Positions 28,299 through 50,199 of a stretch of DNA of 64,000 nucleotides are shown here, piece after piece. Each line of letters starts with the position of its first letter. Position 1 is the first letter of the stretch. The DNA is from Plasmodiophora brassicae. Lineage: Eukaryota. The position numbers were made by a program, and so were the translations under genes. The notes beneath the pieces are model-generated. The model made no database searches. It worked only from the letters and a program-made list of their open reading frames with translations, and was not told the origin of the DNA. The stretch covers positions 1,240,001 through 1,304,000 of the forward strand of contig CP145411.1 of NCBI GenBank assembly GCA_036867785.1. The letters run 5' to 3'.

Positions 28299-29945
28299 CA
28301 GCAGCGCGAGCAGATCTTATTGGAGGTCGCCGCCCGCCAACCAGTCGTGACGAAGACCGAGTCTATCGACCCTGCGCGACCGCCGGCGCCCTTGTCGACA
28401 ACGTCGTTTACAACACCCGTCCGGCTGCCCTCGTTCACGGGCGATGTCTCGGTAGATTCGATGTCTGCGACGACATGGTTCGAGGAGTTTTGCCGGTTTG
28501 CCGACGCTGACCCGACGTCAACTGCACCGTTGTCGAATACGGCCATGAACCTGTTGACATCGAGTCTGGACGGCGTGGCGCTGAAGCTGTACATGGCGAT
28601 CAAGCCATCGTCCCCGCAGGCCCTCATGGCCACGCTTCTGGAGAACTTTCCGGAGATCACTGCCGCGAGTGCCAAGGCCGATTTCGACGCCCTGCGCCAG
28701 ACGGGCCCGTTCGCGGGGCATCTCGTGGAGTTCCGCCGCCGCTACTTTGTCGCTGTCGCCCGCGACCCGGACTGCCGTCTAAGCGTCTCCTCGCTGGGCC
28801 GAGAATCTTCGCACATCGCCGACCCCTGCCCTGGCCGAGGAGTTGTACAAGTGGCAGCTCCGCAGCTTCTCCGGCATGGTGGGTAAGGCGGTCCATCTGG
28901 CGTCGCTGTTCCCGGTGCCGTCGACGGCTACTCTGACCGTGGCCGCAAGCGCTCTGCAGCCGCTGACCGACGAGGAGCGGGACCGTTGCCGCCACGAAGG
29001 CCGCTGTTTTCGCTGTCGCGAACCCGGACACATGTCGAGTAAGTACCCTCGCTCTCAGCCGGGAAATGTCCTCGGGTGATCCGAGCCGGGTTCGCGGATC
29101 GCCCAGTACATCACAACATTCTTGAACCTGATTGGCTCTTCGTCTCTTCTCTCTGTTCCAGCGTACGATTCGTTCCGTCCGTCACTGTCCCCATTCAGAT
29201 TCTTATCGCGTCACGTGTCATCTTGACTAAGGCCCTTATCGATTGTGGCGCTACATCTTCGTTCGTCGACTGGTCCTTCGCTCGCTCGCACGACATTCCC
29301 TGCGTTGCGAAGCAGCAGGCGATTGCCGTCAAGGTGGTTGATGGCAGGGCCCTACCGCCTGTGCCACAGGAGACGCTGCCTCTGACTGCGAGGGTCGATG
29401 GTCTGTTCCAGAACAGCAACTTGATTTGGAACGTGATTCGCGCCCCCAACCATCCCATCATTCTCGGGATGCCGTGGCTCGAACACCATGATCCGGTGAT
29501 CGACTGGCGCCAGCGATCTGCCGCCCACCGTGACTTGGCGACTCCGACATCGGCACCGGATCCGCTACGCAGCTCCCCTCTTACCGTACCGACACTCGAC
29601 AAGGTCGACACCAAGATTTCTGTAGACGAGAGAAGGGTCGCTGAGGGAGCTTGTTGCCCGTCGGACCCTCCTGCGTTCACCTGGGACCAGCTCTCCGCTG
29701 TCTGCTCGCCGGGTCAACAGCGCACTGATGGGGGTCCCGTCGTTTCGGCAGTGAACCGCACTCCAGCCTCGGTGTCGGCTGAATCGTGGGCCACATCTTG
29801 GCTTCGACATGTTTTGTGGGCCTTTTGATGGTCAGCATAGCGCTACTGCGTCTCCTTTTATGTATCTGTGCCGGCGCCCTTTTCGCCTGGATCTTTCGGC
29901 TCGCGATACTGGCAGGCGGTTTCGGTGCTTGTTTCGCCTTAGACT
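28299..29945 (+). pseudogene. Gypsy gag-protease fragment, paralogue of 50200-52000
   Basis: High similarity to the 50200 gag. CFRCREPGH knuckle and ALIDCGATSSF protease motif, with frameshifts. Confidence 0.85.
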
Positions 29946-30099
29946 ACGCTGCTAGGCTGCAGGCCGCAGCTCATCGCGTTCGTGCTACAGTCCCGCCCGA
30001 CCTCTTCGTGATCACCGACGCGTTCGTCGCCACCCTGCTCGTGGTCAATGCGTCGCCGAACAGGATGCCGTCACCGCCAGCCTGCACAGCCGTGGCCTG

Positions 30100-32010
30100 G
30101 AGACACGTCCAACAGTGGCCGACATCGTGGCCTCATTAACAAGCGAGGAGTCTTGTATTCGTGAAGCGCGCGGCCGCGAGCAGAGTCCTTCGAAACGGCG
30201 AATCGAGTCGCGACGAACCAGACGGACCCGCACACCACATCATTCAAGCGCCACGATCCGTGCATGCTGCACCCGGATGCCAATCCGAAGCACACGAACG
30301 GCAAGTGTCGCGCCCAGCGTCATCTGTGTCACACGAATACAAAGACATCGTCGGACGCGTATACCCCTCTGTTCGAGCAATGTCAGCCGGTCACCCCGTC
30401 GTAGACACGACGTTAGTTGGCCTACTGGATTCCGACTGTTCCACAACGACAACACCCCTGCGGCGGCATCTCAGCTGTTATCGACGAGGCTCTGGACCGG
30501 AAGTCGAACTAGCTGACCTGTCGCGTACGAGCACTTCCGGTCGAGGCATGACGTCATTCGGCAAGGATGCCCAGGCGACGAGTATCGACTCGCTGCACGT
30601 TCCACGACTTGGCCAAGCGCTCGTTTCAATCGGCCAGATCACCCGATCAGGACACAAGATCGTGTTCGACGGCGCCGCCGCGACGATCTACTCGAAGGAC
30701 AGCTGGACGGCACCTACCGGGCAGCCAGTGGCGATCAGCAACCGTGAAGAAGACAACCTGTACCGGATCGCACTATCAGCTCCACCCACCAACATCACGC
30801 AATCGACTGTACGAGCCTGTTCCCTGATCGTATCCGACATCGCCTGTCGCGCCGCAAAGGTCACCGCTGCATCTCCCGATCTGTGGCACGCACGAATCGG
30901 CCATCTCGGTTATTGCAGTCTGCAGATCCTGCAGAACCGCTGTCGTGGCATGAAGTTCGATGGCTCCATTCCCAAGCGTTCGGACCGGTGCCCATGCGAA
31001 GCCTGCCTCCTCGTCAAAGGCAAGCGTTCCTCATTTCCTCCGAGTAAGTCGCGGGCACGTCGTGTCGGCGATCTCGTGCACAGCGACCTATCCGGCCGGT
31101 GGCCCGTTATCGGCATTGGCGGCTTCGAGTACTACCAGACGATGCTGGATGACTCCACGCGCTACCTGACGGTCTACCTGCTTCGCCGCAAATCGGACGC
31201 CCTCGATGTCATTAAGAACTACGACGCGCGCCTTCGCAATCAGGAAGGGCGAGGTATCGGGGACTTCTAGACCGACGGTGGCGGCGAGTTCAACTCGAAG
31301 GCATGCGTCCTGTTCTACAACACGTCCGGCATCCTGCACCGCAAGTCGGTCCCATACAACCTGAGCAGAACGGCCGCGCCGAAAGCGTCAACTACACGCT
31401 CTGTTGCATCGAGCTAGCGATCCGGTGTCGCGCCCACATGCCCGACTTCACGTGGCCCTGGTCGCTGTCTTACTCTGCCGTCCTGTACAACATCCACCCG
31501 AGATCCGTCCTTCCCGAACGTCGCACATCGTTCGAGGCAGCTCGCCGCGCCCGACCTGACGTCTCGGCCCTTCGTGTCTATGGTTGCGATGCCTATGCCA
31601 TGCGACCACATCCAGCCACGAAGAAGCCGAGCAAGTTGGAGCCGGGTCGTGTTCGCGCTGTGTTCATCGGTTTCACGCCCGGCATGAAGGCGTGGCGGTT
31701 CTACGACGTGGACCGCGAAGACACGTTCGAGAGCACGACTGCCGAATTCCTGGAGAACTCATTCACATTCGGTTTTGGAAGATCGATCTCGGCCAGTTCA
31801 TCATCAGCGCCAACATCCAGTCCCGAGTCGAGCCCTGCGTCGAACGTTGACACGATCGTCCCGACGTCCATCTCTTCCGACGCCATCATGGCACCTCTAC
31901 CATCGACGTTAGCATCCTCTATCGCAACAGCCCCTCCCGAGCCTCCTTCACCTCCCGCCGCGTCATTGCCTTCCGAGATCGTCCGACCGTCACGATCACC
32001 GTCTCCTGAC
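30100..32010 (+). pseudogene. Copia protease-integrase fragment, paralogue of 36480-41435
   Basis: LLDSDCSTTTTP, LWHARIGH..CPCEAC, VHSDLSG, stop at the QTDGGGE motif, frameshifted integrase. Confidence 0.85.
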
Positions 32011-32049
32011 CCTGCATCCCAGAACGCGGACGCCCGTGCGCTGCACAGG

Positions 32050-33307
32050 CATTGGTGACGGGCAGACATGGCGCGAACCGGGACGTACTGATCAGGTTGC
32101 GACGATGTATTCGATGTCGTCCGCCACAACGAGCGCTGTAGGAAACAGTTGCCATTCGTGTGCGGCTTCCTCAAGGTCGTATGTAGGACGCACAGTCCAT
32201 CGCGTTCGGGAGCCTTGATCGGGTGTGCGGTGGCGTTTGCACGGTTCGCCGTTGCGAACGATATCTCCCGGTCAGCATGAGCCTCTTGAATGCGCTGCTC
32301 TTCTGATGTGAGCGTGGACACGACCTCAGTGACGGTAGGCCGCGGTTCGAGTCCACGACTGTGCAGGTTGGATGCGGCCGTGTCTAATTCTGACGAGGCG
32401 TTGCCAGCCATCAGGACAGCCAGGAAGGAATCCGTCATGTGAAGCATGTCGTTCGGGACTGTTGTACGGAAACGTTGGGCAGCGGCTTGCAGACGAGCCG
32501 CGTACAAGGCGACCGATTCACCGGCTTGCTGTCGAACACTGAACAAATCTTTAGAAGCACGAATGACAGACGAAAACGTGCAGGGTCGCAGCATGCGGAA
32601 GAGCGCGCGCCAGCATTGCGCCGATGTACCGGCGTACAGCAAGTTGTAGCCGATCAGAACGGTCTTGTCGACCATCTGAAACAAGAGTATCTCCCGAGCA
32701 GTTGCCTCCAGATCCGCGTCCACATTGTCGGGGATACTCGGAGTCGGCGATCCGTCCAGATCGATGCCGACGATTCCCGCGAATCCACGGTTGGTAAACC
32801 AAGACGCGGCGGCGGGCGCCCAAGCGGCAAACGATTCGTGCTTGCCGTCGAACCGAGGCGGAGGCACGCGATCTGTACCTGGACGCACTACGCCGTCCAC
32901 AATGGTTGGGCGAGGCTGCGTCGTCGGCGTCGTGGCGATGCAGGAGTACGATGCGGTTTGCTGTCGCAGGAATGCGATGCGCGCGATCTTCTCCTGTCGC
33001 TCGGCCTCAGCGAGCTGCGCGTCGAGATCTTGGACATCTGACTCCGCCGTTCGGCCGCGATCGGCCATGACGTTGGACGCGAGCGAGACGCCCAGAGCGC
33101 GGTTACGACTGTTAATCTGAAACGACGAAATCAGAGTGAGATATATTGATGGATATAGAGCGAAGATATTGGGTGTGACGGGCAACGTCGTAGACGTGAG
33201 ACGCGGTGCACGTTACATCATCGCGGGCGGCGCTGACACCAGACTTGCGGAGTGCGTGGCAGCGTCGGTGTGCTGCACGAGTGTGCTGCTGGATATGGAG
33301 TTCGACA
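32050..33307 (-). mobile_element. 5' end of a related copia: LTR (33118-33307), PBS (33104-33117), gag from ATG 33068
   Basis: LTR begins TGTCGAAC like the 36253 LTR and carries the same PBS. Gag PPRFDG..FAAW..LTSEE is homologous to the 36480 gag. Joined to the inverted fragment at about 32010. Confidence 0.8.
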
Positions 33308-33718
33308 TCTCCTCAGGACAGCAGCATCTTGAGGTCGGGCACGAGACGCTAAATATAGAGCCCCGCTCTGCAAGGCGTGCATGTGCCGCCGTACACACTA
33401 AGCTTATGTATCGTTAGTCGTATTCGATTGTCACACTTACATGCCGTGCCTCACGTCAGGCAAGCCTAGCGACCGAGGCGAACCAGTCGTTCCTTTCATA
33501 GGTCCGCTTTTGACGCGCGCCACTAGAACGGAAGCGTTGGAGTTTAGCGACGACATCGGCTGGCGGCTCTGCGTTTGGACCGCGCGTTGCAATACTGAAC
33601 GTGGATACAGCGCTCGAAGACGTCGTTTAGTTTGTGTGACAGAGACCGGCACAGGTCCGCGTTCCCGTTTACAACGCTGACCCATCTGCGACCGCTAGCA
33701 CGTTGCGACGCCGGAGCT

Positions 33719-34049: not shown

Positions 34050-36252
34050 AGCTGCAATACCAGTGCTGACCGCGCGCGCCAACGTCACTGGTTCACGTTC
34101 GACCGATGTGGTATTGTAGACTGCAGAGTTGCGGCCGTCATGTTCGCGCGCCCGACGATAAAACCAGGTGCGCATCCTCGATCTTCTTGTCGTACGCGAC
34201 CTTGGAGGTGACAGTCATCACGTTGTTCGGCACCACTTCGAACACGGTGGCCACATGGAATCTTGGTTCCCAGGCTGATATCCCTTATCTAACAAAACAA
34301 TGTTCAGGTGGATGATGTCAACGATATATGGCAGCACATACCCTTGTTCAGGACGAACCGCGGTAGAACGAAACCGAAGGGCGCGTCGCTCGCATGCAAT
34401 TTCTGCCAGCGGGAAACGCGAATCAACACGATCGACGACGGCTCTGGTTCACGACGATACTGCCAATTCAAGTCGAATTGCACGAATGTTGATATGGAAC
34501 CCATATACAGACCGTCGCCATCAAAGTCGACAACAAACCGGGAACTGCACGACTTGGGGTACGACCTATTCCGTGACTGCGTCACGGAATTTGCAGTTTC
34601 CTACAATGCAGCGACGGTTACTCAACGGGAAACAGCGTTTAACAAAACCACCGATGACCAATATTTGTTCCGAACTACTTTAGACACTCGTTGGAAGGCA
34701 GATGTCAGGAGACGACACGACGGACGACTATTGTCTCCACAACACGGAATTAACCGACTGCCGAAGCCGTCGGTTGCCGTGGACGTTTATTCAAACTGCG
34801 CGGCTGCGCGACCCCCGTCGCGGCCGTGCCATAACAGTATAGTCCCCTGTCATCGGGCCGGCCTGCGGGGTGGCTTTCGCCACTTCGGCCCCGGCTTGGT
34901 TGGGTACCGAGCGTGGAAGTTAGCCAACAATTCGTTGAGCCCACCTGTACCGTGTAGTTCTCCTGCGGGTTCCCACGTGCGTTCAGAAGGCGGGTACCCC
35001 TCCCAGTCGATCAAATATTCCAATCGGGAACGGCGATATCGAGAATCGAGAACATCGTGAACGATGAAGAGGGGAGCATCGTCATCCGCGGGAAGAATCG
35101 GTGGAGGAGGAGGTTGAGTGGGTTGGCGACGTAAGGCTCGAGTTGAGATACGTTACATTGTGGATACGGAACTCGGCAGGAAGGTCGAGTTGAAAGGCAA
35201 CCGGATTGACGAGTTGACTGATAGGGAATGGCCCTTAAAATTGGTAGTCGAGCTTCGCGCAGGGTCGCAGAGTTTTCAGGGAGCCGCGACGTAACATCAC
35301 TAAGTCGCCCACCTGAAACTTCGGAGACGTTTGCCGCTTCGCGTCGGCGAATCGTTTGGAATCGACAGAAGCTCGAGTCAATTGGCGGGTCAAGAAGTTG
35401 CGAATCCTCTGCAAGGACTCAGCTCGCTCGTCGGCAGTCGGATTGGCGCTGGTAGACGGTCGAGGTTGCACGTCCATCACACGTGGATGGTAGCCATAAT
35501 TCGCGAAAAACGGTGACATACCTGTCGCTGCATTGTTGTACGAAAATTCGGCTACGGCAAGGAGCGGATGCCAGTCGTCTTGTAAGTAGTTGACGTACGC
35601 ACGGAGATACTGTTCCATGACTTGGTTCACCCGCTCGGTTTGGCCATCGGATTCTGGGTGCCGCGAAGAAGACAGGTTGCGTTGCACGCCGAGACGTATG
35701 AGAAGTTGCTTCCAGAACTTAGCGATGAACTGAGGCCCTCGGTCCGACACGGTATCGTCAGGGAGGCCATGTAAGCGGAAGACATTTGCTAGAAACAAGG
35801 CGGCAAGGTCGACAGATGATATTGTTTCGTTGCAAGGAATAAAATGCGCCATCTTGGAGAGGCGGTCAACGACGACGAGGATGGAGTCATACCCGTTCGA
35901 GCAGGGAAGCTTAACCACGAAGTCCATGGAAATGGACCGCCACAGAGTCGTCGGCAGAGGGAGTGGCATGAGTAATCCGAAGGGATTGTGCCGAGCCGTC
36001 TTAGTCCGACGACACGTATCGCAGGAGAGCACGTAGCGGGTTACGAAAGGGGTTAAACCCGGCCACCAAAATTCGCGGCGAATTAACTGCACGGTTTTTC
36101 GAATACCGAGGTGGCCCGCCGTGCCATTATCGTGGAAATAGCGAAGAATGTCCAGTTTGCAGTCATCGCCAGAGACAACCACAGAATGTCCACGGTATAG
36201 AACGTCGTCTCGGACGCTAAAGTGGCGGCCGCTCGGACGATGAAGTCGCTGA

Positions 36253-39200
36253 TGTCGAACAACGTATCCACTACGACCAGCAGCACATGCCTGCAGCACG
36301 TGAACGCCGTCACGCACTCCGCGACTCCGTGCCCGCCGGCGTTGGCAACCGTTACACCGTCGGCGACTACGTCGCCACTGTAACGTCCGCCGCACACGCC
36401 GTACGTAATACATCCACTTCATTATTGTCCTTCTCAGATTAACAGTCGTATAGGCGCAGGCGCTGAGCCTCTACTCGCCATGGCCGAGCGCCAGGCGACG
36501 CCTAACACGGATGACGACCCGCTGCGTCATCTGTCGCTCGAGGAGATCGACACCCGAATTGCCGAAGCGGAGGCAACGATCGCCAGGCAGGAGAAGATCG
36601 ACCGTCTCCGTGTCCTGCAGCAGCAGCTGGCGCGTCCGACCAGCTGTCCATCGACCCCGGCCATGCCGATCATCGCCGAGGCGCACAGCCGAAGCGACGC
36701 AGGCCGACTGCCCATGCCCAAGTTCGACGGTACTCCCGACTCGTTCACGTCCTGGGTTCAGACAGCTGCACTCTGGTTTCGCAATCGTGGGTACGCGGAC
36801 GTCATCGGGATCAACGAAGATGGCTCGCCGACTGCGACAACCGGTACGGCACACGACCCAGCTCTCGAGGCAGCCGCGCGCGAGATTCTACTCGTCCACA
36901 TGCTGGACCACAAGATCGCGTCCGCATTGTCTTTGTTTCAGGCAGGCTCGGCTGCCAAGTGCTGGCGCGTGCTGTTCCAGGCGTACAGCCCGTCGTCGCT
37001 GGCATCGGTCGTGCGCGCCGTCCGCGACCTCGTCACGGTCCAGCACATGCCCGGCGAGTCGGTCGCCACGTACGCCGCCCGAGTTCAAGCAGCGGCTCAT
37101 CGCGTCCGGTCGACGGTACCGACCGAGATGCTGTCCCTCACCGACGCATTGGTCGCCGTCCTCATCTTGGCCAACGCATCATCCGATCTCGACGCCGTCG
37201 TCGCTGGCCTGCACAATCGTGCTCTGGACACGCTGCCCAGTGTCTCCGAGGTCGTCGGGTCGTTGACAAGCGAGGAGATCAGGGTCCAAGACGTGCGGGA
37301 CCGACACGACGCGTTCCAAACGGCCAACCGCTCCAGTTGCGCCACATCGACGCGTCCCCGTGGACCACGACGCAACGAGTCCTGCGTCTTCCATCCCGGA
37401 TCCAAGCACACTAACGGCGAATGCACGCTGCAACGACACATCTGGTACCGCGACAGCAACGCGAAAAGCAATACATCCTCACCAACGTCCAACGAGTATC
37501 CAACGTCTGGCGCTCATCCGATCGATCCGGCGCCCGAGCCGATGCGTGCTTTGTCGGCACGCCACGCCATCGACGTGTACGCGAACTCAGTAGGCCTACT
37601 GGACTCAGCGTGTTCCACGACGATGACGCCCCTGCGCCGACATCTCAGCTGCTATCGCCAAGGCACCGGACCGGAAGTTGAGCTAGCCGATCTGTCGCGT
37701 ACGACCACTTCCGGTCGAGGCGTGACGTCATTCGGCATGGATGTCCAGGCGACGAGTATCGATTCGCTGCACGTTCCCCGACTTGGCCAAGCGCTAGTAT
37801 CAGTTGGCCAGCTCACCAGATCAGGTCACAAGATCGTGTTCGACGGCGATACCGCGAAGATCTACTCGGGGGCCAACTGGACGGCGCCCGTCGGTCAGCC
37901 AGTGGCCGTCAGTCAACGAGGACACGATAACCTGTACCGGATTCCATTATCCGCTCCAACCTCCGCGCCCGGCACACTTCACTCTGCCCGAGTCTGCTCC
38001 TTGATCGCATCCAGCGTCTCATGCCGCGTCGCTAAGGTCACCGCCGCAGCTCCAGCTGTCTGGCACGCTCGAACCGGCCACCTGGGTTACGGCAACCTGC
38101 GCATCCTGCACAAACGTTGTCGTGGCATGAAGTTCGACGGGCCAATCCCGAGGCCGCAAGATCGATGTCCATGCGCTGCATGTTTACTCGCCAAGGGCAA
38201 ACGGTCATCATTCCCTCCCAGTACGTCGCGCGCGCGTCGTGTTGGCGATCTCGTCCATAGCGATCTGTCCGGACGGTGGCCTGTCGTCGGTGTCGGCGGC
38301 TTTGAGTACTACCAGACCATGCTGGACGATTCCTCTCGGTACCTGTCCGTCTATCTGCTACGTCGCAAATCGGAGGCGCTCGACGTCATCAAGCACTATG
38401 ACGCGCGTCTTCGCAACCAGGAAGGACGTGGTATCCGGACGTTCCAGACCGACGGTGGCGGCGAGTACAACTCCAAGGCGTGCGTCCTGTTCTACAACGA
38501 GTCCGGCATCCTGCACCGCAAATCTGTCCCGTACACGCCCGAGCAGAACGGCCGCGCTGAAAGCGTCAACCACACGCTCTGCGGTATCGAAAGCTCAATC
38601 CGGTGCCACTCTCGCATGCCTGACTCCACGTGGCCCTGGTCGCTGTCCTACTCTGCGATACTGTACAACATCCACCCGAGATCAGTCCTTCCCGGGCGTC
38701 GCACATCGTTCGAGGCTGCTCGTCGCGCCCTACCTAACATCTCGGCCCTTCGTGTCTACGGTTGCGATGCCTATGCCATGCGACCGCATCCAGCCACGAA
38801 GAAGCCGAGCAAGTTGGAGCCTCGTCGTGTTCGCGCTGTGTTTATCGGTTTCACGCCCGGCATGAAGGCTTGGCGGTTCTACGACGTGGACCGGGAAGAC
38901 ACGTTCGAGAGCACGACTGCCGAGTTCCTGGAGACCTCGTTCACATTCGGCTTTGGAAGATCCAGCCCTGCTAGTTCATCATCAGCGCCACCGTCCAGTC
39001 CCGAGTCGAGCTCTGCGCCGAACGTTGACACGATCGTCCCGACGCCCGTCTCTTCCGACGCCGTCATGGCACCTCTACCATCGACGTCAGCATCCTCTCT
39101 CGCAGCATCCCCTCCCGAGCCTCCGTCACCTGCCGCTGCGTCATCGCCTTCCGAGATCGTCCGACCGTCGCGCTCACCGTCTCCTGATGACGTATCCACC

Positions 39201-41488
39201 GACGAAGATGATGATGACGCTGAAGATGATCCCGACTACGAAGGTTCGGCGTCCAGCAACGACTCTCCCAACGAAGCTGCCGACCCCGACGTCCACGACA
39301 ATTCCGATGCTGCTGATATCGTTGACCACAATGTCATCGACGTGCCACGCCCTCGCCGATCGAATCGTCGTCGTCAACCGCCTGGTGAATGGTGGAAGGC
39401 GCCGGAGGCGGCCAATCGTTCGTCGACACGGTGGTCCTCGACGGTCGACGCCTGGTTCCAGAATCCGACCCTAACGTTCCCGACACAGCGCCCTCCTCGT
39501 CGCTCCCGCCGACTGATCCGGCATTGGCAGCAGGTTGAGGAGCGCCGTCTGATCGATCAGGCCATCAGGTCCAACCGTCCGACATGTCGCGGCGCAGCTG
39601 CCAAGGCATGTCGAGCCAAGGTATCCGCCCCGATCGACCCAGCCCGTCTACCACGACCCGACCTGTCGAAGCTGAAAGCGACCGACATTCCCGTACCCAA
39701 CTCAATGGCCGATGCCCTCTCATCACCTTTCGCTGGCCACTGGTGGGACGCCGCCGTCACCCAGATGGCAACACTGGACGCCAAGGACACGTTCGGCCCG
39801 CTAATCGACCTGCCGAAAAGTAAGATCGCTGTTGGCGCCAAGTGGGTGTTCCGAGTGAAGTCCTCGCTCAGTGGCAACGGTGGCATCCGCAAGTTCACCG
39901 CCCGACTCTGTGCTCAGGGCTTCCGACAACGCCCCGGCATCGACTTCGACGATACGTTCGCGCCGACCGCCCGTGCCACTGCGTTCCTCGTTATCCTAGC
40001 GCTCGCGGCGCAGCACGGCCTGCATCTTCGCCAGGTCGACTGGGTGGCCGCATACCTGAACGCCGACATGCTCCATGATGTTTACATTCGTCAGCCGGAT
40101 GGCTTCACCGATCATCACGTCCCGTACCGAGTTCGTCAACTGCAAAAGGCCCTTTATGGAACGAAACAAGGCGCCGAACGTTGGTACAAGACGCTTCGGG
40201 AGATGCTGTTATCACTCGGATTCGAATCGATCATCGCGGACCCCTGCGTCTTCCGGTACGATCGCGATGGAAAGTTCATGATCATGTCGGTGCACACCGA
40301 CGACGGTCTGCTGGCGTACAATGACGTCCCGTTCGCGGAATCCGTTCTCGAGAAGCTCTCCACGATGGCCGAGATCACCGATCAAGGTGAACCGTCGACC
40401 CTGCTTGGCATGCGCATCCGACGCGAACCTGGCACCGGCGCCATCACCCTTGACCAAGCCGAGTACATCGAGAAGGTGTTGAGCGACTTCAACATGTCGC
40501 ATTGTCATCCGGTCGACACGCCGCACCAGCCTGGCGTTCACCTATCAACGACAATGAGTCCACAAAGCGACCTCGACCGTGACGAAATGGCGACCAAGCC
40601 GTACCTCAAACTTATTGGCTGCCTGACATGGCTCGCCCATCGATGCCGTCCCGACATCGCGTACATAACGAATGTACTGGCCCAATTCTCCTCGAATCCC
40701 GGCATCCAGCATTGGCGTGCGGGGCAACGCGTTCTTAAGTACCTCGCCGGCACCATGACGCACGGCATCCGATACGAACGCCAGCCCGAAGATCGTCTGA
40801 TCGCATACGCCGACGCTGATTGGGCATCCGACCCTGACACGCGACGGTCGCGCTCCGGCCACATCATCCTGCTGGCTGGCGGCCCCGTGCACTGGCAGTC
40901 ACGTCGCCAAGACCTGGGCGCAGTCAAAGTTAGCTTATCGTCCACACATGCAGAGATCAAGTCGCTGTGTGCTGTTACCCGCCAGCTGGCCTGGATCCGG
41001 TCATTCCTGACCGAAATCGGCTTCGCACGCTCCAGTCCGACGATCGTATACGAGGACAATCAAGGCGCGAAGGCCTGGTCTGGCTATCGTCGGATGGATG
41101 ATCGCACGAAGGACATCGAGGTGCAGTTTCACTACACCCGGGAGGCCGTCGAGGCCAGTTTGATCGTGGTCCACAAGTGCCCGTCCGCCGAGATGGCTGC
41201 AGACTACCTCACGAAGCCCGCTCTCAGCACCTCGTATCATGCGAACCTGCTCCTGGCCGGCATCATCGACACAAGTCCCAGGCCGTGTGCTGCTGGAGGG
41301 GGCGTGTCGAACAACGTATCCACTACGACCAGCAGCACATGCCTGCAGCACGTGAACGCCGTCACGCACTCCGCGACTCCGTGCCCGCCGGCGTTGGCAA
41401 CCGTTACACCGTCGGCGACTACGTCGCCACTGTAACGTCCGCCGCACACGCCGTACGTAATACATCCACTTCATTATTGTCCTTCTCA
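36253..41488 (+). mobile_element. Full-length Ty1/copia LTR retrotransposon
   Basis: 184-bp LTRs 36253-36436 and 41305-41488, identical by eye, TG...CA. 5-bp TSD GCTGA. PBS GATTAACAGTCGTA and PPT GGAGGGGGCG. Confidence 0.97.
36480..41435 (+). CDS. Copia gag-pol polyprotein (1651 aa, uninterrupted)
   Basis: Order gag, PR (LLDSACST), IN (WHARTGH..CAAC, HSDL, TDGGGEY, QNGRAE), RT (KWVFRVK, ARLCAQGF, KALYGTKQ, HTDD), RNase H (YADADWA, EDNQ, ADYLTK). Confidence 0.95.
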   Translation: MAERQATPNTDDDPLRHLSLEEIDTRIAEAEATIARQEKIDRLRVLQQQLARPTSCPSTPAMPIIAEAHSRSDAGRLPMPKFDGTPDSFTSWVQTAALWFRNRGYADVIGINEDGSPTATTGTAHDPALEAAAREILLVHMLDHKIASALSLFQAGSAAKCWRVLFQAYSPSSLASVVRAVRDLVTVQHMPGESVATYAARVQAAAHRVRSTVPTEMLSLTDALVAVLILANASSDLDAVVAGLHNRALDTLPSVSEVVGSLTSEEIRVQDVRDRHDAFQTANRSSCATSTRPRGPRRNESCVFHPGSKHTNGECTLQRHIWYRDSNAKSNTSSPTSNEYPTSGAHPIDPAPEPMRALSARHAIDVYANSVGLLDSACSTTMTPLRRHLSCYRQGTGPEVELADLSRTTTSGRGVTSFGMDVQATSIDSLHVPRLGQALVSVGQLTRSGHKIVFDGDTAKIYSGANWTAPVGQPVAVSQRGHDNLYRIPLSAPTSAPGTLHSARVCSLIASSVSCRVAKVTAAAPAVWHARTGHLGYGNLRILHKRCRGMKFDGPIPRPQDRCPCAACLLAKGKRSSFPPSTSRARRVGDLVHSDLSGRWPVVGVGGFEYYQTMLDDSSRYLSVYLLRRKSEALDVIKHYDARLRNQEGRGIRTFQTDGGGEYNSKACVLFYNESGILHRKSVPYTPEQNGRAESVNHTLCGIESSIRCHSRMPDSTWPWSLSYSAILYNIHPRSVLPGRRTSFEAARRALPNISALRVYGCDAYAMRPHPATKKPSKLEPRRVRAVFIGFTPGMKAWRFYDVDREDTFESTTAEFLETSFTFGFGRSSPASSSSAPPSSPESSSAPNVDTIVPTPVSSDAVMAPLPSTSASSLAASPPEPPSPAAASSPSEIVRPSRSPSPDDVSTDEDDDDAEDDPDYEGSASSNDSPNEAADPDVHDNSDAADIVDHNVIDVPRPRRSNRRRQPPGEWWKAPEAANRSSTRWSSTVDAWFQNPTLTFPTQRPPRRSRRLIRHWQQVEERRLIDQAIRSNRPTCRGAAAKACRAKVSAPIDPARLPRPDLSKLKATDIPVPNSMADALSSPFAGHWWDAAVTQMATLDAKDTFGPLIDLPKSKIAVGAKWVFRVKSSLSGNGGIRKFTARLCAQGFRQRPGIDFDDTFAPTARATAFLVILALAAQHGLHLRQVDWVAAYLNADMLHDVYIRQPDGFTDHHVPYRVRQLQKALYGTKQGAERWYKTLREMLLSLGFESIIADPCVFRYDRDGKFMIMSVHTDDGLLAYNDVPFAESVLEKLSTMAEITDQGEPSTLLGMRIRREPGTGAITLDQAEYIEKVLSDFNMSHCHPVDTPHQPGVHLSTTMSPQSDLDRDEMATKPYLKLIGCLTWLAHRCRPDIAYITNVLAQFSSNPGIQHWRAGQRVLKYLAGTMTHGIRYERQPEDRLIAYADADWASDPDTRRSRSGHIILLAGGPVHWQSRRQDLGAVKVSLSSTHAEIKSLCAVTRQLAWIRSFLTEIGFARSSPTIVYEDNQGAKAWSGYRRMDDRTKDIEVQFHYTREAVEASLIVVHKCPSAEMAADYLTKPALSTSYHANLLLAGIIDTSPRPCAAGGGVSNNVSTTTSSTCLQHVNAVTHSATPCPPALATVTPSATTSPL

Positions 41489-42203
41489 GCTGACGGGTGC
41501 GGCACACAAACGGGTCGGAAGCTTGGTTGCGGCGGATACGATCGGAGTGCGTCGGTTGGAGTATCGGTCACGTGGGTCTGGACCTCCTGTAGAGGTCCTG
41601 GCCCGAGCCGCGACGGTGGAAGGAGCAGGAGTGACTGCTGGAGCACAACCTCATCCTGATCAGAAGGCGCGTATTCGGGGCGACGAGTCAGGGCGTCCGC
41701 CTTGCCATGAAGACGGCCTGGTCGGTGTTGGATAACGAAATCAAATTCGTTACGCAGTTGGGACCATCGGACTTGACGACGATTCAGTTTGTGAGTGCTG
41801 GTGAAGTACTCCAGATTCCGATGATCGCTGTGGATGACGGTCTGGTGCCGCGATGAGTCCAGGAACTGACGCCACTTCTCGAAGGTCTGGACGACCGCGA
41901 GAAGTTCCTTGTCGTAGATAGGAAAATTGATCTCAGCAGGCGCGAGCTTGCGCGAGAAGAATGCCAACGGGTGAAGTTCATCATCGGGCCCCCGCTGCGA
42001 CAATACCATTGCCACCGCGAAATCGGAAGCAACCGTTTCCACTTCGCACGGGCGATCTGGGTCGAAATGAGCAAGGACAGGGGCTGACGTGAAAGCAACC
42101 TTGAGCGCCGTGAATGCGGCTTCTACCGATTGGTCCCAACGAAACGGCACGTTATCACTGTCAGGAATTACATACATCCAATCCTCACGCCAGTCGGACT
42201 TCA

Positions 42204-42275
42204 GGCGCCGTAGCTGAGTGGTACAGCAGCGGTACGTTCAACCGTTGGCCCTGGGTTCGATTCCCAGCGGCGCCC
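42204..42275 (+). tRNA. tRNA-like gene in the 5' LTR (GTT at the anticodon position, non-canonical loop)
   Basis: Cloverleaf: acceptor GGCGCCG/CGGCGCC, D arm GCTG-AGTGGTA-CAGC, anticodon arm GCGGT-ACGTTCA-ACCGT, T arm CTGGG-TTCGATT-CCCAG. A box TAGCTGAGTGG, B box GGTTCGATTCC, TTTTT at 42279-42283. Confidence 0.8.
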
Positions 42276-42451
42276 GCGTTTTTCAGATTAACAGTCGTAT
42301 GCGCTATACATAGCCATACAGAAATGCGTGGCGCCAATGGGCCCTCTTCCGTAGTAGATCCCAGGACAGACACCATCGTCACACCTGGCTACGGATTGAG
42401 GGGGCGTGTCAGGAATTACATACATCCAATCCTCACGCCAGTCGGACTTCA

Positions 42452-42523
42452 GGCGCCGTAGCTGAGTGGTACAGCAGCGGTACGTTCAACCGTTGGCCCT
42501 GGGTTCGATTCCCAGCGGCGCCC
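42452..42523 (+). tRNA. Second, identical tRNA-like gene in the 3' LTR
   Basis: Same sequence as 42204-42275, followed by TTTTT at 42527-42531. Confidence 0.8.
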
Positions 42524-42596
42524 GCGTTTTTCAATCACGCGTGAGATTTGTCAGCGGTAAGGCCAGTTCTGCGAAGTGGGGAACGAACTTGCGATA

Positions 42597-44735
42597 CCAC
42601 CACGGGAAGATGAATTTGCATGACGGGGAAGAAATTTTTGCATGGCGGGGACATAATTTTTGCATGACGGGGAACAAATTGAAGGATGGCGGGGAACACA
42701 ACGAATGGATGGCGGGGAAGAAATGCGTGGATGAGTGGCCCAAAATAAATGGATCGGCTCGGGACGGACGAGCGGGCCGCCTAACTGTGTACCTACCGTA
42801 CCGTTGCAGGACGACGTCACCAGAACAATGGCAGGGATACAACCGATAACGGTAAGCGGATACCGTACAGTATCGCCGACGGACCTACCGTACCGTATTC
42901 TGACTTCATATCCCACGGTAGGTAGGAGGGTTGCAATCGTCGCAGACGTCCGCTCGTAGGCGAGTCGGTCGTCCTGCGATGAACCCGGAGCGGATTCCTC
43001 GTTTGGACCCTACAATCGCGTCGGACCCTAGGCTCTGTGAAATCGACTGCGAAAAAGCTCGGCAGCGCGCATACCAGCAATTGCAGCAAATGGAGAGCGC
43101 TGCTGACCATGTTCGGGCTGTTGCTGACAGGGCGATCGACCGCATCCATCAAGTCGCCGACCGAAAACGACGCTTCGCTGACGAATTGGTCGAGTGGCAG
43201 GCCCGACTGTCGGCCGACGAAGTCGCTGTCGAATCTGTTCCAGAGCGATTTCGTAAGGCTCTTCTCCCGCGGAAGCCACACATCGACGAAGACGAAGATC
43301 GTATTATGCATGCTCTTGACGGCAAGCGATCGCAGGTGGAGATCGCACGCGAGGTCGGCTGTGCTCAGTCAACGGTCTCCCGTCATTTGAACGGGGTATC
43401 GCAAGCCCGCGACGGTGCTGCTCGAGGCCGACCGCGGAAGCTGTCGGATGAGATGTTGAATGCTGCAGCGCGATTCATGTTTCTGCTCCCTGGTGCGACA
43501 CTGACACTTGCAGCCGCGTTTCTCCAGTTGTCCTACCATGTCGTCGTGTCCCGGAAGACTCTTGGTATACACTTGCGGCGTAGGGCAGGGTTCCGCCTTG
43601 GTGACTTCAAAACCTTCCACGTACAACGCAATGCGCCAGAAACAATCGACAATCGGTTCAGATACATTGCCCGTCTGGAGTCGGAAGAATATCGCCGGAA
43701 GTTCGGCCCGAACCCGCTCTATGACGCGATCTACTACGATGAGATGCCACTGGCTCGGATTGCCAACCGAAAAATCTGGTCCGTTCGCGGTTGGATTCCG
43801 TCTCTGGTTGAAGAATCGGTCAGAGGACGCCACGTTTCGCTTCTGCTTGCTGTGAGCCCAGCAGTTGGGGTTGTATGGTACGAAGTTCTCGATAAGACAA
43901 TTGATGGTGACGCGTTCCTCGCTTTTTGCAACAACTTGGTCAAATCGTATGTGAATACTTCCAGGAATGGTCGCCCACGGCTGTTCATTTTGGATAATGC
44001 TCGATTTCACCATGCTCGCTCGGTGGAGGCCTTTTTCGGACGCGACGAGGTCGCTCGCCACCTTGTCCTTGAGTTCCTTCCGCCATATTCGCCCTTTCTC
44101 GATCCCTGTGAAGAACTGTTCGCGCTTATTAAGATCCGTATATGGCTCAATTGGATTGCCGGTTCCTCGGACGAGCGGTCAATTGCAAGCAGCAAGCAAG
44201 CACTAGTAGAAGAAGTTCGGCAAATAACAACAGACGATATCCGTCAGACGTACGACCACATGAGGGAATTCCTATCGTATTGCAAGGACCGGCGACCTGT
44301 CTTCACCCAAAAGTTGTACGAGTGTGCACACCATGGAGACGAGGAGCGGATGTGTCCGACGGGATCTTTGGAAGTGGATGATTTACTGAACAGTTACCTG
44401 CCCCAGTTTTATGAGGAGTTTACACCGAGCCGTTGTCAGCATCTTCGTGATATGTTTGGTTGTTCACGACTGACTAAAGACATCGTCGAGCGGTTCTACG
44501 ACGCACAGGTGCGTTCTCCGGGAGGCGGCGGCGCCCATGGCACTGTTCGCTGAGCCGCCGCCACGCGCACGCACCTAACGCTCCAGCAATCGGTTCCAGA
44601 GAGACAAAATACATGCATCACGATCCATTATTTTTGTGCTCGTCATCCTTCAATTTGTTCCCCGTCATGCAAAAATTATGTCCCCGCCATGCAAAAATTT
44701 CGTCCCCGTCATGCAAATTCATCTTCCCGTGGTGG
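42597..44735 (+). mobile_element. Tc1/IS630-like DNA transposon
   Basis: TIRs of about 90 bp starting CCACCACGGGAAGATGAATTTGCATGACGGGG with TA TSD. Removing the element restores the gypsy ANFYRKF motif. Confidence 0.93.
42931..44553 (+). CDS. Tc1/IS630 transposase (DD38E spacing); probable ATG at 42979
   Basis: HTH SQVEIAREVGCAQSTVSR, GRPRKL, YYDE, ILDNARFH, FLPPYSPFLDPCEELF. Confidence 0.9.
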   Translation: MQSSQTSARRRVGRPAMNPERIPRLDPTIASDPRLCEIDCEKARQRAYQQLQQMESAADHVRAVADRAIDRIHQVADRKRRFADELVEWQARLSADEVAVESVPERFRKALLPRKPHIDEDEDRIMHALDGKRSQVEIAREVGCAQSTVSRHLNGVSQARDGAARGRPRKLSDEMLNAAARFMFLLPGATLTLAAAFLQLSYHVVVSRKTLGIHLRRRAGFRLGDFKTFHVQRNAPETIDNRFRYIARLESEEYRRKFGPNPLYDAIYYDEMPLARIANRKIWSVRGWIPSLVEESVRGRHVSLLLAVSPAVGVVWYEVLDKTIDGDAFLAFCNNLVKSYVNTSRNGRPRLFILDNARFHHARSVEAFFGRDEVARHLVLEFLPPYSPFLDPCEELFALIKIRIWLNWIAGSSDERSIASSKQALVEEVRQITTDDIRQTYDHMREFLSYCKDRRPVFTQKLYECAHHGDEERMCPTGSLEVDDLLNSYLPQFYEEFTPSRCQHLRDMFGCSRLTKDIVERFYDAQVRSPGGGGAHGTVR

Positions 44736-47135
44736 TAGAAGTTAGCGACCCCGAGAAATACCTGCACCCCGTGGACGTCGGTCGGCTGTTGCCACGAGAG
44801 AATGCAATCGATCCTGGAGGGGTCAACCCGTATCCCGGAGGAGGACACCAAGAAACCTAAGAATTCCACTTCGACCGTATTGAAGACGCACTTCTCCAGT
44901 TTAGCGTGGAGTTGAGCAGTGCGGAGTCGCTCTAGGACGAGACGGACATGGCGTTCATGGTCCTCGGGAGTCGATGAGTAGATCAGGATGTCGTCCAAGT
45001 AGATTACCACAAATACATCAAGGAAATCCTTGAACGTCTCGTTCATGAAGTACTGGAAGGAGGCCGGCGCGTTGGCTAAGCCAAACGGCATGACTAAGTA
45101 CTCGAACAAGCCGTACGGCGTGCGGAAGGCCGTCTTCCACTCATCGCCTTCTCGGATCCGAACTTGATTATAGGCGCTGCGGAGGTCGATTTTCGTGAAG
45201 TTTGTTCCGGAGCCCAGCTGGATCAAGAGCTGGTCGATAAGTGGAACCGGATATCGGTTCTTGATAGTAACAGAGTTTAGACCACGGTAGTCTACGCACA
45301 GGCGAAGACTACCGTCCTTCTTCTTGACGAACAGAATTGGGGAGCCCGCCGATGAACGGGATGGACGAATGAGATTAGCTTCCAGATTGATCTTGAGATA
45401 CTCCTTCAAGGCTTCTTGTTCCCGGGGTGACAGCCCGTACAGACGGCAATACGGCGGGTCGCCACCGGGTTTCAGGTCAATCGGACAGTCGAACGGTCGG
45501 TGATCAGGAAGAGTCGTTGAGTCCGCGTTATCGAAGACGTCAGTAAACTCCTGAGATTGCGGCGGTAGTTCCGCGGCGTGGGCAGCGGAATCGGACGGGG
45601 ACCATGTGTAGTGGATGGCATAGCAGTCTGCGCCGTCTTGCACGTCGTCTAAGAACGGTTCGGCGGAAACAAACGCGATGGAGAGCGGCTCCACAGGTTC
45701 GCGTGGCGGCTCCGTAGTCAACGGATCCGTGCCAACCGGCGACGACGTGGAGGCCTACGGCACGGCAGTCAGCAAGGCGTTGTCGATGACGCAGGGATCC
45801 GGAAGCATGGAAGGCGCACGTCTCGGGGCGGAGCTCTTGGCGATCAATACCAGGAGGGCGACCAGCCCAACGAGCGCACACAGCTGGGAGGCGAGTGACC
45901 CGCGTGGCATGCTGCGCCCTGAGCAGGCGAAGAGGCGCGTCGACCCGCGCGGCGGCGTGCCGGCGAAACCGAGGGAGGTTCTGAACAAGAGGGGGCCGCC
46001 GATATGGGTGCCAAGCACGAAAGAGGCGGAAGCGGTGGCGGAACATTGGCGGTAGCTGCGGTCGTCGGCGCAGGCGGTGCGGCGGAATTCACTGGTGTCG
46101 ACCAGCGGCAGACACAGGCGGCACTAGTTCCGGACCGTCGACCAGAGAAGCAGCCACCGGCACTAATGGCTGGTCAGTAGCAGGCGCAGGCTGCACTAGT
46201 TCCGGAACGTCGACGGCGACCAGAGAAGCACCCACCGGTGGTAACGGCTGGGCAGTAACGGGAGACGACGAGGCGAGGAAGTGATCAATGTCCGAAGGCG
46301 GTGCGTTCGGAAGCGGTCCGGGTTCGACGGGCAACCCGTCGGCGCAGCATAATAACGCGGCCGTGTCAGGAGAGCAGACGGCCGTGTCAGGAGAGCAGAC
46401 GGCCGTGTCAGGAGAGCAGGCGACCGTGTCATCAGAAAGGGCGACCGTGGCAGCAGAGCAGCCAACCGTGTCGGCAGAGCCGGTGGGGTTCCCACCGGCC
46501 CGAGCATCGAGCCACAAACGCGGTGATCCCCGAGTAAGACGTTCGCGTACGGTGCGACGACGCCAGTCGATATCCGGATTGTGCTGTTCGAGCCAGGGCA
46601 GCCCCAGAATTATACGGTGACTCGGAGCGTCAATAACGTTGAGGACAATTGTGTCGTGGAAGGCCCCGTTGACGGAACACGGCAATGGCGACGTCTCCAA
46701 TGTGATCGGTGGCAGGTGACGGCCGTCAACAACCTTGACGGGAATCGGTTGTGCTTTGGAGCGGAGCGGCAGGCCATAGCGGCGGGCGAAACCGGCGTCG
46801 ACGAAGGAAGATGTCGCTCCACAGTCCAAAAGGGCCGTCGTCGCCCACGGGCGATCGCCCGTGGATTGGAAGGGAACGAGTAAATGATGAGATGAATGAG
46901 CAGTTGCGAAACAAAGAGCAGTGACGAGGACAGTGTCGGGTTGCGAGGACGAAGAACATTCGTGTATCGAGAGAGGGTGAGCTGCCAACCCGGGAGCAGT
47001 CACCCTTGACCATTTCCCGGCGGACGATGTGGGCATGTTGCGACCATATGTCCGGGCTGCCGGCAATACATGCACAATCCTTGCCGTTTGCAGCGCTCGC
47101 GCTCCTCCGACGTTAGCTTGGTCCGACTGGCCGGC

Positions 47136-47477
47136 TGTATCATACGTACAGCATAGCAGCACCTATGATGTTGTTCACGGTCATAACCCCTGTCCCGACA
47201 CGGCCCGCCAACATTGCCGATCCGTTCCGGACTAGCACAGTCAGCTGTCCCGCCAGACCAGTCGTGTGTGTCCCAGAATAGACCGCGGACTTCCGGAGAC
47301 CGTCACGGACTCCGGAGACGCAGTGGAGGGCGTGAGGCCAGACGGCCCGAAATAAACCAGACAGACAATAGTCACATACAGGCAACCAGCAGTCAGACGA
47401 CAGGCTGCTTGTCATAGACCGAGGGGCTAGGAGCGAGCTTCTCAACGAGTACGTCTCGAAGCTTGAAGGACGTCACC
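47136..47477. mobile_element. Probable solo LTR (342 bp) inside the gypsy gag
   Basis: Starts TG, ends CC (degenerate CA?). 5-bp TSD CCGGC. Removal restores the gag frame [13 protein letters not shown]. Confidence 0.7.
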
Positions 47478-48659: not shown

Positions 48660-49520
48660 AAACTCCCCCGTATGCAGACTTGTAGTGCGAACAAAATTCA
48701 TCAAAATTCGCCAGGTTGTCCAGCATCATCGCGAAGGTACTAATCCGCCGGTTGGTCGTGACTTCGAAATCCTTCACCAGACATACCGGTACCTCCACGA
48801 ATGGTCATAGGATAAAAACGTCCAGTGCCCAGAGGTTATAATATGGGCATGCAGCCAGCACCGCTCGACGTCTGACAGTTCGTATGTCGAAAGCGGTGCG
48901 CGAACTTCAATGGGCAGCATCATCAGAGTAGCAGGCATAGCGTCTTCGACGCTGCCAGAGTTTTCGCCAAAGAGAAGCATGTTGCCCTTTGCCACCGAAT
49001 AGAACTGGTGATAATGACCTCGTAGGAAAACAGCACCCAAAGTCATCTGGAGATTGCCAGCGATATTAATGGTTGTGAAGACGATAACGAAGTGATTTAT
49101 TCCGACCGACATCGGCGCGAGACGGCGGCGACGTAACGCTATGTAACAGGGGCTTGCCAAGCCGTTACCGACAACGGCGTCTGTGGCGGAGCCTCTGCCG
49201 TGGACGGTACGCAGTCGCACACAGTCACGGCGTCACCGTGTGCCGGTGGTACGACATGGTCCTTGACAATGGTTTGGGAAATCGTCGATTCCAGGTTCTC
49301 CTTCATAAAGAAGATCCAACGCTCCATGGGGAACGTCCAGATAAATCCGTACAAAGGACCCCAACGAAGAATTATGTCGGGTAGATGCACTAAGGAATGC
49401 ATCTGATCAAACATCGTTTGAGGGTTAGAGAAAACAATGATGCTGCGCGCGGGTAGACATACCGAGATCGTGAACAGTGATGGTGGTATGACCGACTCCA
49501 GTCGCGCCAGCGAAATTGCG
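48660..49520 (-). pseudogene. CACTA/EnSpm-like transposase remnant, probably continuing at about 34100-34700 beyond the gypsy insertion
   Basis: MHSLVHLPDIILRWGPLYGFIWTFPMERW matches the HxxxH..GP..WxFPxER motif. Interrupted by the solo LTR at 49074-49268. Confidence 0.6.
49074..49268 (-). mobile_element. Solo copia-type LTR
   Basis: TG...CA with 5-bp TSD ATGGT. Near-identical to 49637-49832. Confidence 0.9.
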
Positions 49521-49622: not shown

Positions 49623-49832
49623 TACGACTGTTAATCTGATGAAGACGATAACGAAGTGATTTATTCCGACCGACATCGGCGCGAGACGGCGGCGACGTAA
49701 CGCTGTGTAACAGGGGCTTGCCAAGCCGTTACCGACAACGGCGTCAGTGGCGGAGCCTCTGCCGTGGACGTTACGCAGTCGCGCACAGTCACGGCGTCAC
49801 CGTGTGCCGGTGGTACGACATGGTCCTTGACA
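49623..49832 (-). mobile_element. 5' LTR plus PBS of a truncated copia-type element
   Basis: LTR 49637-49832 followed on the minus strand by GATTAACAGTCGTACGCG. Confidence 0.8.
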
Positions 49833-50199
49833 ATAATTACCGGATGATCCGGTAATTATGACGAACTCTAATGAATACGTCATTTGTTCTCGCACCTGAG
49901 GTCCGATCAACGCCGGCCGGCTGTTCCGCAGTGTGAGCGTGATGAAAACGGACACACCGAAGAAATTTGGTGAAGTTGCCTATTATAGCCATGACACGAA
50001 CAGATAAAAGGTAGTGGTGGGCGACGCTCCGGATCGGTGCAATGCCACGGTCCAGTCGATTTTAGTCTTGACGTATCATCACATATGTCAGGCGTCGACA
50101 TAGCAGGTCGGCGCCGGAATAAAGTCCGTGCGAGCGGGGACCGACGGCAGTCGGTCAACGCGTCGTCGTATAGTCGTGACAGTATGACCGACCTTCACC

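Follow-up and report, generated by a model that had tools for sequence, protein, structure and literature searches.

Four long terminal repeat (LTR) elements of Plasmodiophora brassicae carry the same 14 bases, GATTAACAGTCGTA, directly after an LTR end. They lie in a single window of 64,000 nucleotides, the whole stretch of DNA that was analysed (contig CP145411.1, positions 1,240,001 to 1,304,000, forward strand), and are an intact Copia element (Copia A), a truncated Copia element (Copia B), a terminal-repeat retrotransposon in miniature (TRIM) and a short LTR pair (element C). The 14-mer is probably (about 0.8) the primer-binding site (PBS) of a Ty1/Copia group and of the small non-autonomous elements that it mobilises, and would be primed by a 5' fragment of tRNA-Asn. 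The host's own tRNA-Asn presumably bears the matching anticodon arm, and is presumably cut between positions 40 and 41.

Allowing up to two mismatches, there are four matches to GATTAACAGTCGTA in the window and all four are exact, against 0.19 expected by chance; none of 100 shuffled sequences attained four. Each copy, in the orientation of its element, is immediately preceded by TCA, the 3' end of the LTR. The original prediction had placed the 14-mer after four LTR ends, and its coordinates and strands are correct for each of them (Table 1). It had also described the site as common to Copia families and a TRIM, and this holds for Copia A, Copia B and the TRIM, with element C carrying a further exact copy. 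In a four-way alignment of the elements TCA and the 14-mer make up the sole long invariant block, of 17 columns. The base that follows the 14-mer varies (T, A, T or C); beyond it the leaders are unrelated. Pairwise identity between the LTRs of the four carriers is just 50–63%, and these are therefore four different LTRs. With carriers as diverged as this, including a Copia B gag region at 42% identity to that of Copia A and leaders that are not conserved, the 14 bases appear to have been selected rather than inherited through recent descent. In all four elements the site starts with GATT, not with TGG, as had been noted, and so does not match the 3' end of a tRNA.

In Copia A and in the TRIM the LTR pair is 100% identical and the 5 bp target duplications are intact, showing that both elements moved recently and that the site works in the P. 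brassicae genome. The last ~25 LTR bases of Copia A (36410-36436), Copia B (33118-33145) and element C (49637-49665) follow a loose pyrimidine-rich pattern, CACTTC.TTAT.GTC.TTC.TCA, and the primer or the integrase might make a second contact there.

The complement of the site, TACGACTGTTAATC, reads as positions 27–40 of tRNA-Asn(GTT) genes. It is laid out as five stem bases, a seven-base loop of canonical form (C32, U33, GUU, A37 and A38) and a final two bases complementary to positions 30–31. A metagenome collection was scanned for the full 17-base arm, a search that retrieves only sequences already containing the 17-mer, and at least 119 loci were found. Among the matches listed, 99 of 119 loci have the 17-mer as the anticodon arm of an ARAGORN-called tRNA-Asn(gtt) gene, as predicted, and 3 have it within a tRNA-Ile(aat) gene. 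No ARAGORN tRNA lies over the 17-mer in the other 17 of these listed loci; 4 of them are tRNA-like with a long extra arm, 1 is ended by the contig end and the rest look like chance matches. By a heuristic combining the lack of an encoded CCA with at least 4 T within 15 bases downstream, 35 of the 99 listed Asn genes are nuclear-like. On these comparisons the motif is a genuine and common tRNA-Asn anticodon arm.

Four host-type runs were aligned, at 80% likeness, to a eukaryote-type tRNA-Asn gene that has the arm (L063:360-460). Three contigs each came from runs X14 and X15, one from X3 and none from X12, and the pieces differ by 3 to 7 letters. Two runs of one coded organism each yielded a high-depth contig of 74–75 bases, the unaligned 5' part of which looks like a tRNA acceptor stem and D arm. 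Over 39 aligned bases, which take in the whole arm, these contigs agree with the L063 tRNA-Asn at 34 and differ from it at 5. They are compatible with an identical arm in the host, but not decisive. In run X3 an 83-base contig (L063:380-412) follows a tRNA from the acceptor stem as far as the anticodon loop at all but 3 letters and continues with 41 unlike letters; an intron-bearing tRNA gene is one possible source, a tRNA-derived repeat another.

Several points weigh against priming by the host's tRNA-Asn. The metagenome scan shows the nature of the motif, not the frequency of the arm among tRNA-Asn genes, and the elements contain just 14 of the 17 arm bases. At least one of the 5 letters that differ in the 74–75-base contigs is in the T stem, so that up to ~4 could be in the arm. 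Element C has neither a polypurine tract (PPT) nor a target duplication, and its site may be a relic. Copia and Ty5 use initiator tRNA-Met as a primer that has been studied experimentally, the Drosophila copia primer being 39 nt long, whereas the primer predicted here is tRNA-Asn(GUU).

The arm of the host being a presumed one, the elements may instead have arrived recently from another host with this arm, and the tRNA-Asn of the present host would then pair imperfectly. The nearest published sites, which are in rust fungi and differ at the last two bases (stem positions 27–28; Kojima 2024, PMC10886601), are in keeping with such an origin. However, four diverged families have kept the identical 14 bases in one window, and two of these families have moved very recently here, as judged from their identical LTRs. 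A foreign tRNA-Asn is therefore considered very improbable.

Alternatively, as in Tf1-type self-priming, the element's own transcript could supply, at its 5' end, the partner of the site and then be cut into a primer. The original prediction had raised pairing of this kind as a rival, and a search for it in the elements' own LTRs found none. No complement of any 9-mer or longer part of the site is present in any of the four LTRs. The best duplexes between the site and its own LTR have energies of -6.7 to -11.0 kcal/mol, which falls inside the spread for shuffled LTRs (mean about -8, standard deviation 1.7) and well short of the -18.9 for a perfect 14 bp duplex. Self-priming would not, moreover, predict one site common to four different LTRs, and its probability is close to negligible.

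Another possibility is that the conserved block has no tRNA partner, being instead a hairpin or palindrome site, a packaging or dimerisation signal, or a pairing site for some other cellular RNA. In some Copia elements this place is taken by a conserved structure other than a tRNA site: the fungal GalEa elements have a Conserved Hairpin Site, in which a palindromic 9-mer, the last A of the LTR among its bases, has its inverse complement downstream (Donnart 2017, PMC5445492). The site in the four elements is not of this type. The 14-mer is not palindromic, the four leaders share no downstream complement and their minimum free energy folds differ. The predominance of tRNA-Asn genes among the listed metagenome loci (99 of 119) also argues against such a block, the more so as the 20 others include 3 tRNA-Ile genes and 5 uncalled loci that are tRNA-like by eye or cut off. 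A non-tRNA block is thus improbable, although less so than a foreign tRNA.

Priming by tRNA-Asn would begin with pairing of the site to positions 27–40 of cytoplasmic tRNA-Asn(GUU). This span takes in the entire anticodon loop with the 5' strand of its stem and, of the 3' strand, the first two bases. The site adjoins the LTR, and the primer 3'-OH must therefore be at C40. The cut would accordingly fall in the 3' strand of the anticodon stem (40/41) rather than in the loop, the place of cleavage for stress-induced tRNA halves, whose ends would be at 33–38 and so would not suit the junction. A 5' tRNA-Asn fragment ending at C40 could then anneal by 14 bp and prime minus-strand strong-stop DNA across a short U5 and R, after which the usual LTR cycle would follow, with the G-rich PPT priming the plus strand. 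Such priming would be in the style of copia and Ty5 but with another tRNA, Asn instead of initiator tRNA-Met. Two parts of the original prediction thus fared differently: the complement corresponds to tRNA-Asn(GTT) positions 27–40 at the level of sequence, while the cleaved half ending near C40 is deduced from the placement of the site. Modifications of tRNA-Asn include queuosine at position 34 and N6-threonylcarbamoyladenosine (t6A) at position 37. As t6A37 is also found on initiator tRNA, the primer of copia and Ty5, such modifications are no bar to use in priming. The LTR termini of Copia A (TGTC...TCA) recur in the TRIM and probably in element C, and the TRIM has the same PPT as well, so that these two would use reverse transcriptase (RT) and integrase of the Copia A type in trans. 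A 13-mer spanning the junction of PPT and LTR, GAGGGGGCGTGTC, is identical in Copia A and the TRIM and has only these 2 exact copies in the window.

Each LTR of the TRIM contains a 72-base tRNA-like gene, identified by ARAGORN as tRNA-Asn(gtt) and by Rfam as RF00005 with 57.6 bits against a gathering score of 29. The two LTR copies, 42204-42275 and 42452-42523, are the sole tRNA genes called in the window by either program. The gene has a box A (TAGCT...TGG) and a box B (GGTTC), after which come CGCG and a run of five T that stops three bases short of the LTR end. The anticodon loop of the gene, ACGTTCA, has neither U33 nor a purine at position 37, and with a loop so aberrant it is unlikely to be a working tRNA. 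No complementarity was found between the tRNA-like sequence and the PBS. Its best identity to any of 208 ARAGORN tRNAs, which come from the fetched loci and are mostly Asn by construction, is 77%. Apart from the runs at its two LTR ends, the TRIM has no stretch of T that reaches four. A polymerase III transcript starting at the tRNA-like gene of the 5' LTR would have to read through the first of these two runs and end at the second. The R region of such a transcript would then be the tRNA-like sequence itself, in parallel with what has been proposed for Cassandra.

Helenus (TRIMp3) elements, described from fungi, animals and plants, are TRIMs with a tRNA-like sequence in their LTRs (Kojima 2024, PMC10886601). 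They range from 311 to 1263 bp, those of fungi and plants have 5 bp target duplications, and their motifs are defined as box A TRGCY...YGG and box B GGTTC (PMC10886601). The TRIM in the window is similar in its pair of short LTRs, both of which contain a tRNA-like sequence with box A and box B, in having no open reading frame (ORF) and in its length, which is within the published range. It resembles the fungal and plant elements in its PBS, PPT and 5 bp target duplication. The complementarity of the PBS to a tRNA anticodon loop is a further likeness, and one that the Copia elements share. By its structural features the TRIM is of the Helenus type, apparently in a host group without reported Helenus. 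The host here is a plasmodiophorid, which differs from the fungi, animals and plants of the Helenus reports, and the word Plasmodiophora is absent from the main text of Kojima 2024 (PMC10886601). At a distance of 670 bp from the window TRIM there is also an intact, autonomous Copia that shares its PBS and PPT.

In the Helenus TRIMs of rust fungi (Pucciniales) the anticodon-loop primer has been identified as tRNA-Asn-GTT (Kojima 2024, PMC10886601). Eight Puccinia and Uromyces consensus internal regions in the supplement of that paper start with (c)GATTAACAGTCGAA or (c)AATTAACAGTCGAA (A for the first G). The same 12-base core, GATTAACAGTCG, is present in the rust-fungus elements and in those described here, at the LTR end or one base beyond it. 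The last two bases of the PBS are TA here and AA in rust-fungus Helenus, at the place of tRNA stem positions 27–28. A difference confined to the bases opposite this part of the stem is expected if each site follows the tRNA-Asn stem of its host. Kojima 2024 was the only paper found in full-text literature searches that names tRNA-Asn as an anticodon-loop primer. The primer had originally been predicted to be an unusual choice; in view of the rust-fungus TRIMs with the same core this was overstated.

In copia and Ty5 the complement of the PBS is a tRNA anticodon stem-loop (cited by Kojima 2024, PMC10886601). The elements in the window resemble these Hemivirus-type elements in belonging to the Copia superfamily, in having a single gag-pol ORF and in having the primer 3' end inside the tRNA. 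The features of this type that were found are the Ty1/Copia domain order, a non-TGG site after the LTR and an anticodon-arm complement that ends in the 3' strand of the stem. Among plant Copia elements, a half-tRNA-Met PBS is described for Osser, Bryco and part of Gymco-II, and a half-tRNA-Ile PBS for Bianca, half-molecule tRNAs being used by about 2% of the elements surveyed (Neumann 2019, PMC6317226). In those lineages, as here, the primer type is lineage-specific. In the text available from that survey tRNA-Asn occurs only among PBSs complementary to tRNA 3' ends, in contrast to the anticodon arm here. [quoted passage not shown] Compared with the core found here, it has another base opposite anticodon position 34 and other bases in the stem, and it also differs in its tRNA and its fungal hosts. 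The Cassandra TRIMs of plants contain a 5S rRNA sequence with a polymerase III promoter and terminator in the LTR (as described in Kojima 2024, PMC10886601). They likewise have a small-RNA gene in a TRIM LTR, but this is a 5S rRNA rather than a tRNA-like sequence.

Table 1. Positions in the window of the four elements that share the 14-base site, and of their parts
Feature	Position	Strand	Remarks
Copia A, whole element	36253-41488	+	intact Copia
Copia A 5' LTR	36253..36436	+	184 bp, TGTC...TCA; 100% identical to 41305-41488
Copia A primer-binding site	36437..36450	+	GATTAACAGTCGTA, exact, directly after LTR end
Copia A gag-pol	36480..41435	+	single ORF, 1651 aa; Pfam matches
Copia A polypurine tract	41295..41304	+	GGAGGGGGCG, adjoins 3' LTR
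Copia A 3' LTR	41305..41488	+	100% identical to 5' LTR
Copia A target duplication	36248-36252 and 41489-41493		GCTGA, 5 bp, flanks element
TRIM, whole element	42159-42533	+	375 bp; LTRs 127 bp each, internal part 121 bp
TRIM 5' LTR	42159..42285	+	127 bp, with tRNA-like gene 42204-42275; identical to 42407-42533
TRIM primer-binding site	42286..42299	+	exact 14-mer right after LTR end
TRIM polypurine tract	42398..42406	+	GAGGGGGCG; 13-mer at junction with LTR as in Copia A
TRIM 3' LTR	42407..42533	+	second tRNA-like copy 42452-42523; 100% identical to 5' LTR
TRIM target duplication	42154-42158 and 42534-42538		ATCAC, flanks element
Copia B 5' LTR	33118..33307	-	~190 bp, start inferred from TGTCGAA; 60% to LTR of Copia A
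Copia B primer-binding site	33104..33117	-	exact 14-mer
Copia B gag region	32055..33068	-	truncated; tblastn with Copia A residues 1-362: 42% identity, E 2.6e-57
Element C 5' LTR	49637..49834	-	194/198 positions identical to 49073-49270
Element C primer-binding site	49623..49636	-	exact 14-mer
Element C 3' LTR copy	49073..49270	-	end …TTCACAA vs …TTCATCA

The Copia A ORF has matches to the Pfam domains Retrotran_gag_2, gag_pre-integrs, rve (residues 590-687), SH3_retrovirus and RVT_2 (2.3e-49, residues 1108-1349). The integrase precedes the RT, which is the Ty1/Copia order. The last 131 bases of the ORF, including the stop codon, are within the 3' LTR (41305-41435) and the PPT is inside the ORF; the same 43 codons of the ORF end are also present in the 5' LTR (tblastn match 36252-36380). 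A viral contig collection contained no relatives of the Copia A RT, and the 7 matches there to a 16-mer of LTR end and PBS are all in AT-rich phage-like DNA without LTR context. Of the sequence words in the stretch 36253-42533, a fraction of 0.83–0.92 is present in 18 runs, which are soil or plant metagenomes or come from four coded organisms. Two runs recorded as RNA contain only 0.05–0.07 of the words, and four that were guessed to be RNA, but are possibly DNA, contain 0.83–0.87.

Pieces of a Gypsy pol are found on the minus strand across ~35235-47162, with integrase at 35235-36422, RNase H at 41419-42177, RVT_1 at 44618-45721 and protease at 46089-47162. These look like one element interrupted by Copia A, the TRIM and a DDE_3 transposase gene (42931-44553, plus strand), forming an insertion nest. 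Just past the TRIM, between it and the DDE_3 ORF, several irregularly spaced GCATGRCGGGGA-like motifs are present at 42590-42720 and may be subterminal repeats of a DDE_3 DNA transposon.

Copia B has no 3' LTR because the element is truncated. Ahead of its LTR, at 33308-33330 on the minus strand, is a sequence (GCTGCTG...GAGGAGA) that resembles the PPT region of Copia A. Two tandem copies may once have had this LTR in common. A plus-strand Copia fragment at 29945-32031 has 60–84% amino acid identity to Copia A residues 198-910. It stands head to head with the minus-strand Copia B (33068-32055), ~25 bases apart, and this arrangement of pieces at 29945-33068 points to a possible rearrangement or nested insertion. 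Element C is a short LTR pair around 369 bp, in which a clean PPT and target duplication were looked for and none was seen. A near-perfect palindrome of 28 bases (ATAATTACCGGAT / ATCCGGTAATTAT) at 49833-49860 adjoins the outer end of its 5' LTR.

Priming from the tRNA-Asn anticodon arm is already published for rust fungi (Kojima 2024, PMC10886601). What is new here is the host group, the number of families with the same site in one window, and a Helenus-type TRIM whose neighbour is an intact Copia sharing its PBS and PPT. A broader and rather doubtful suggestion is that tRNA-Asn priming, instead of being scattered, marks one widespread, unnamed Copia clade, together with parasitic polymerase III TRIMs of the Helenus type, in rust fungi, a plasmodiophorid, diatoms and algae. 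The spread of such a clade may reflect ancient descent or horizontal transfer between plant-associated eukaryotes. In a weaker form of this suggestion, Copia elements may switch primers along near-identical anticodon loops (initiator Met CUCAUAA, Lys CUCUUAA and Asn CUGUUAA, with Ile also counted), each switch taking one PBS substitution.

The practical value of these observations is greater than their conceptual value. Standard LTR annotation, in which the PBS is a match to a tRNA 3' end, would record no PBS for these young Copia and TRIM families, which are probably active. The tRNA-like copies in the TRIM LTRs, when called as tRNA-Asn, inflate tRNA counts, as they do in rust fungi (PMC10886601). 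The TRIM and the adjacent intact Copia would be a convenient pair for testing how an internal tRNA 3' end arises. On the present reading, anticodon-arm priming by tRNA-Asn and TRIMs of the Helenus type would extend to a host group beyond fungi, animals and plants.

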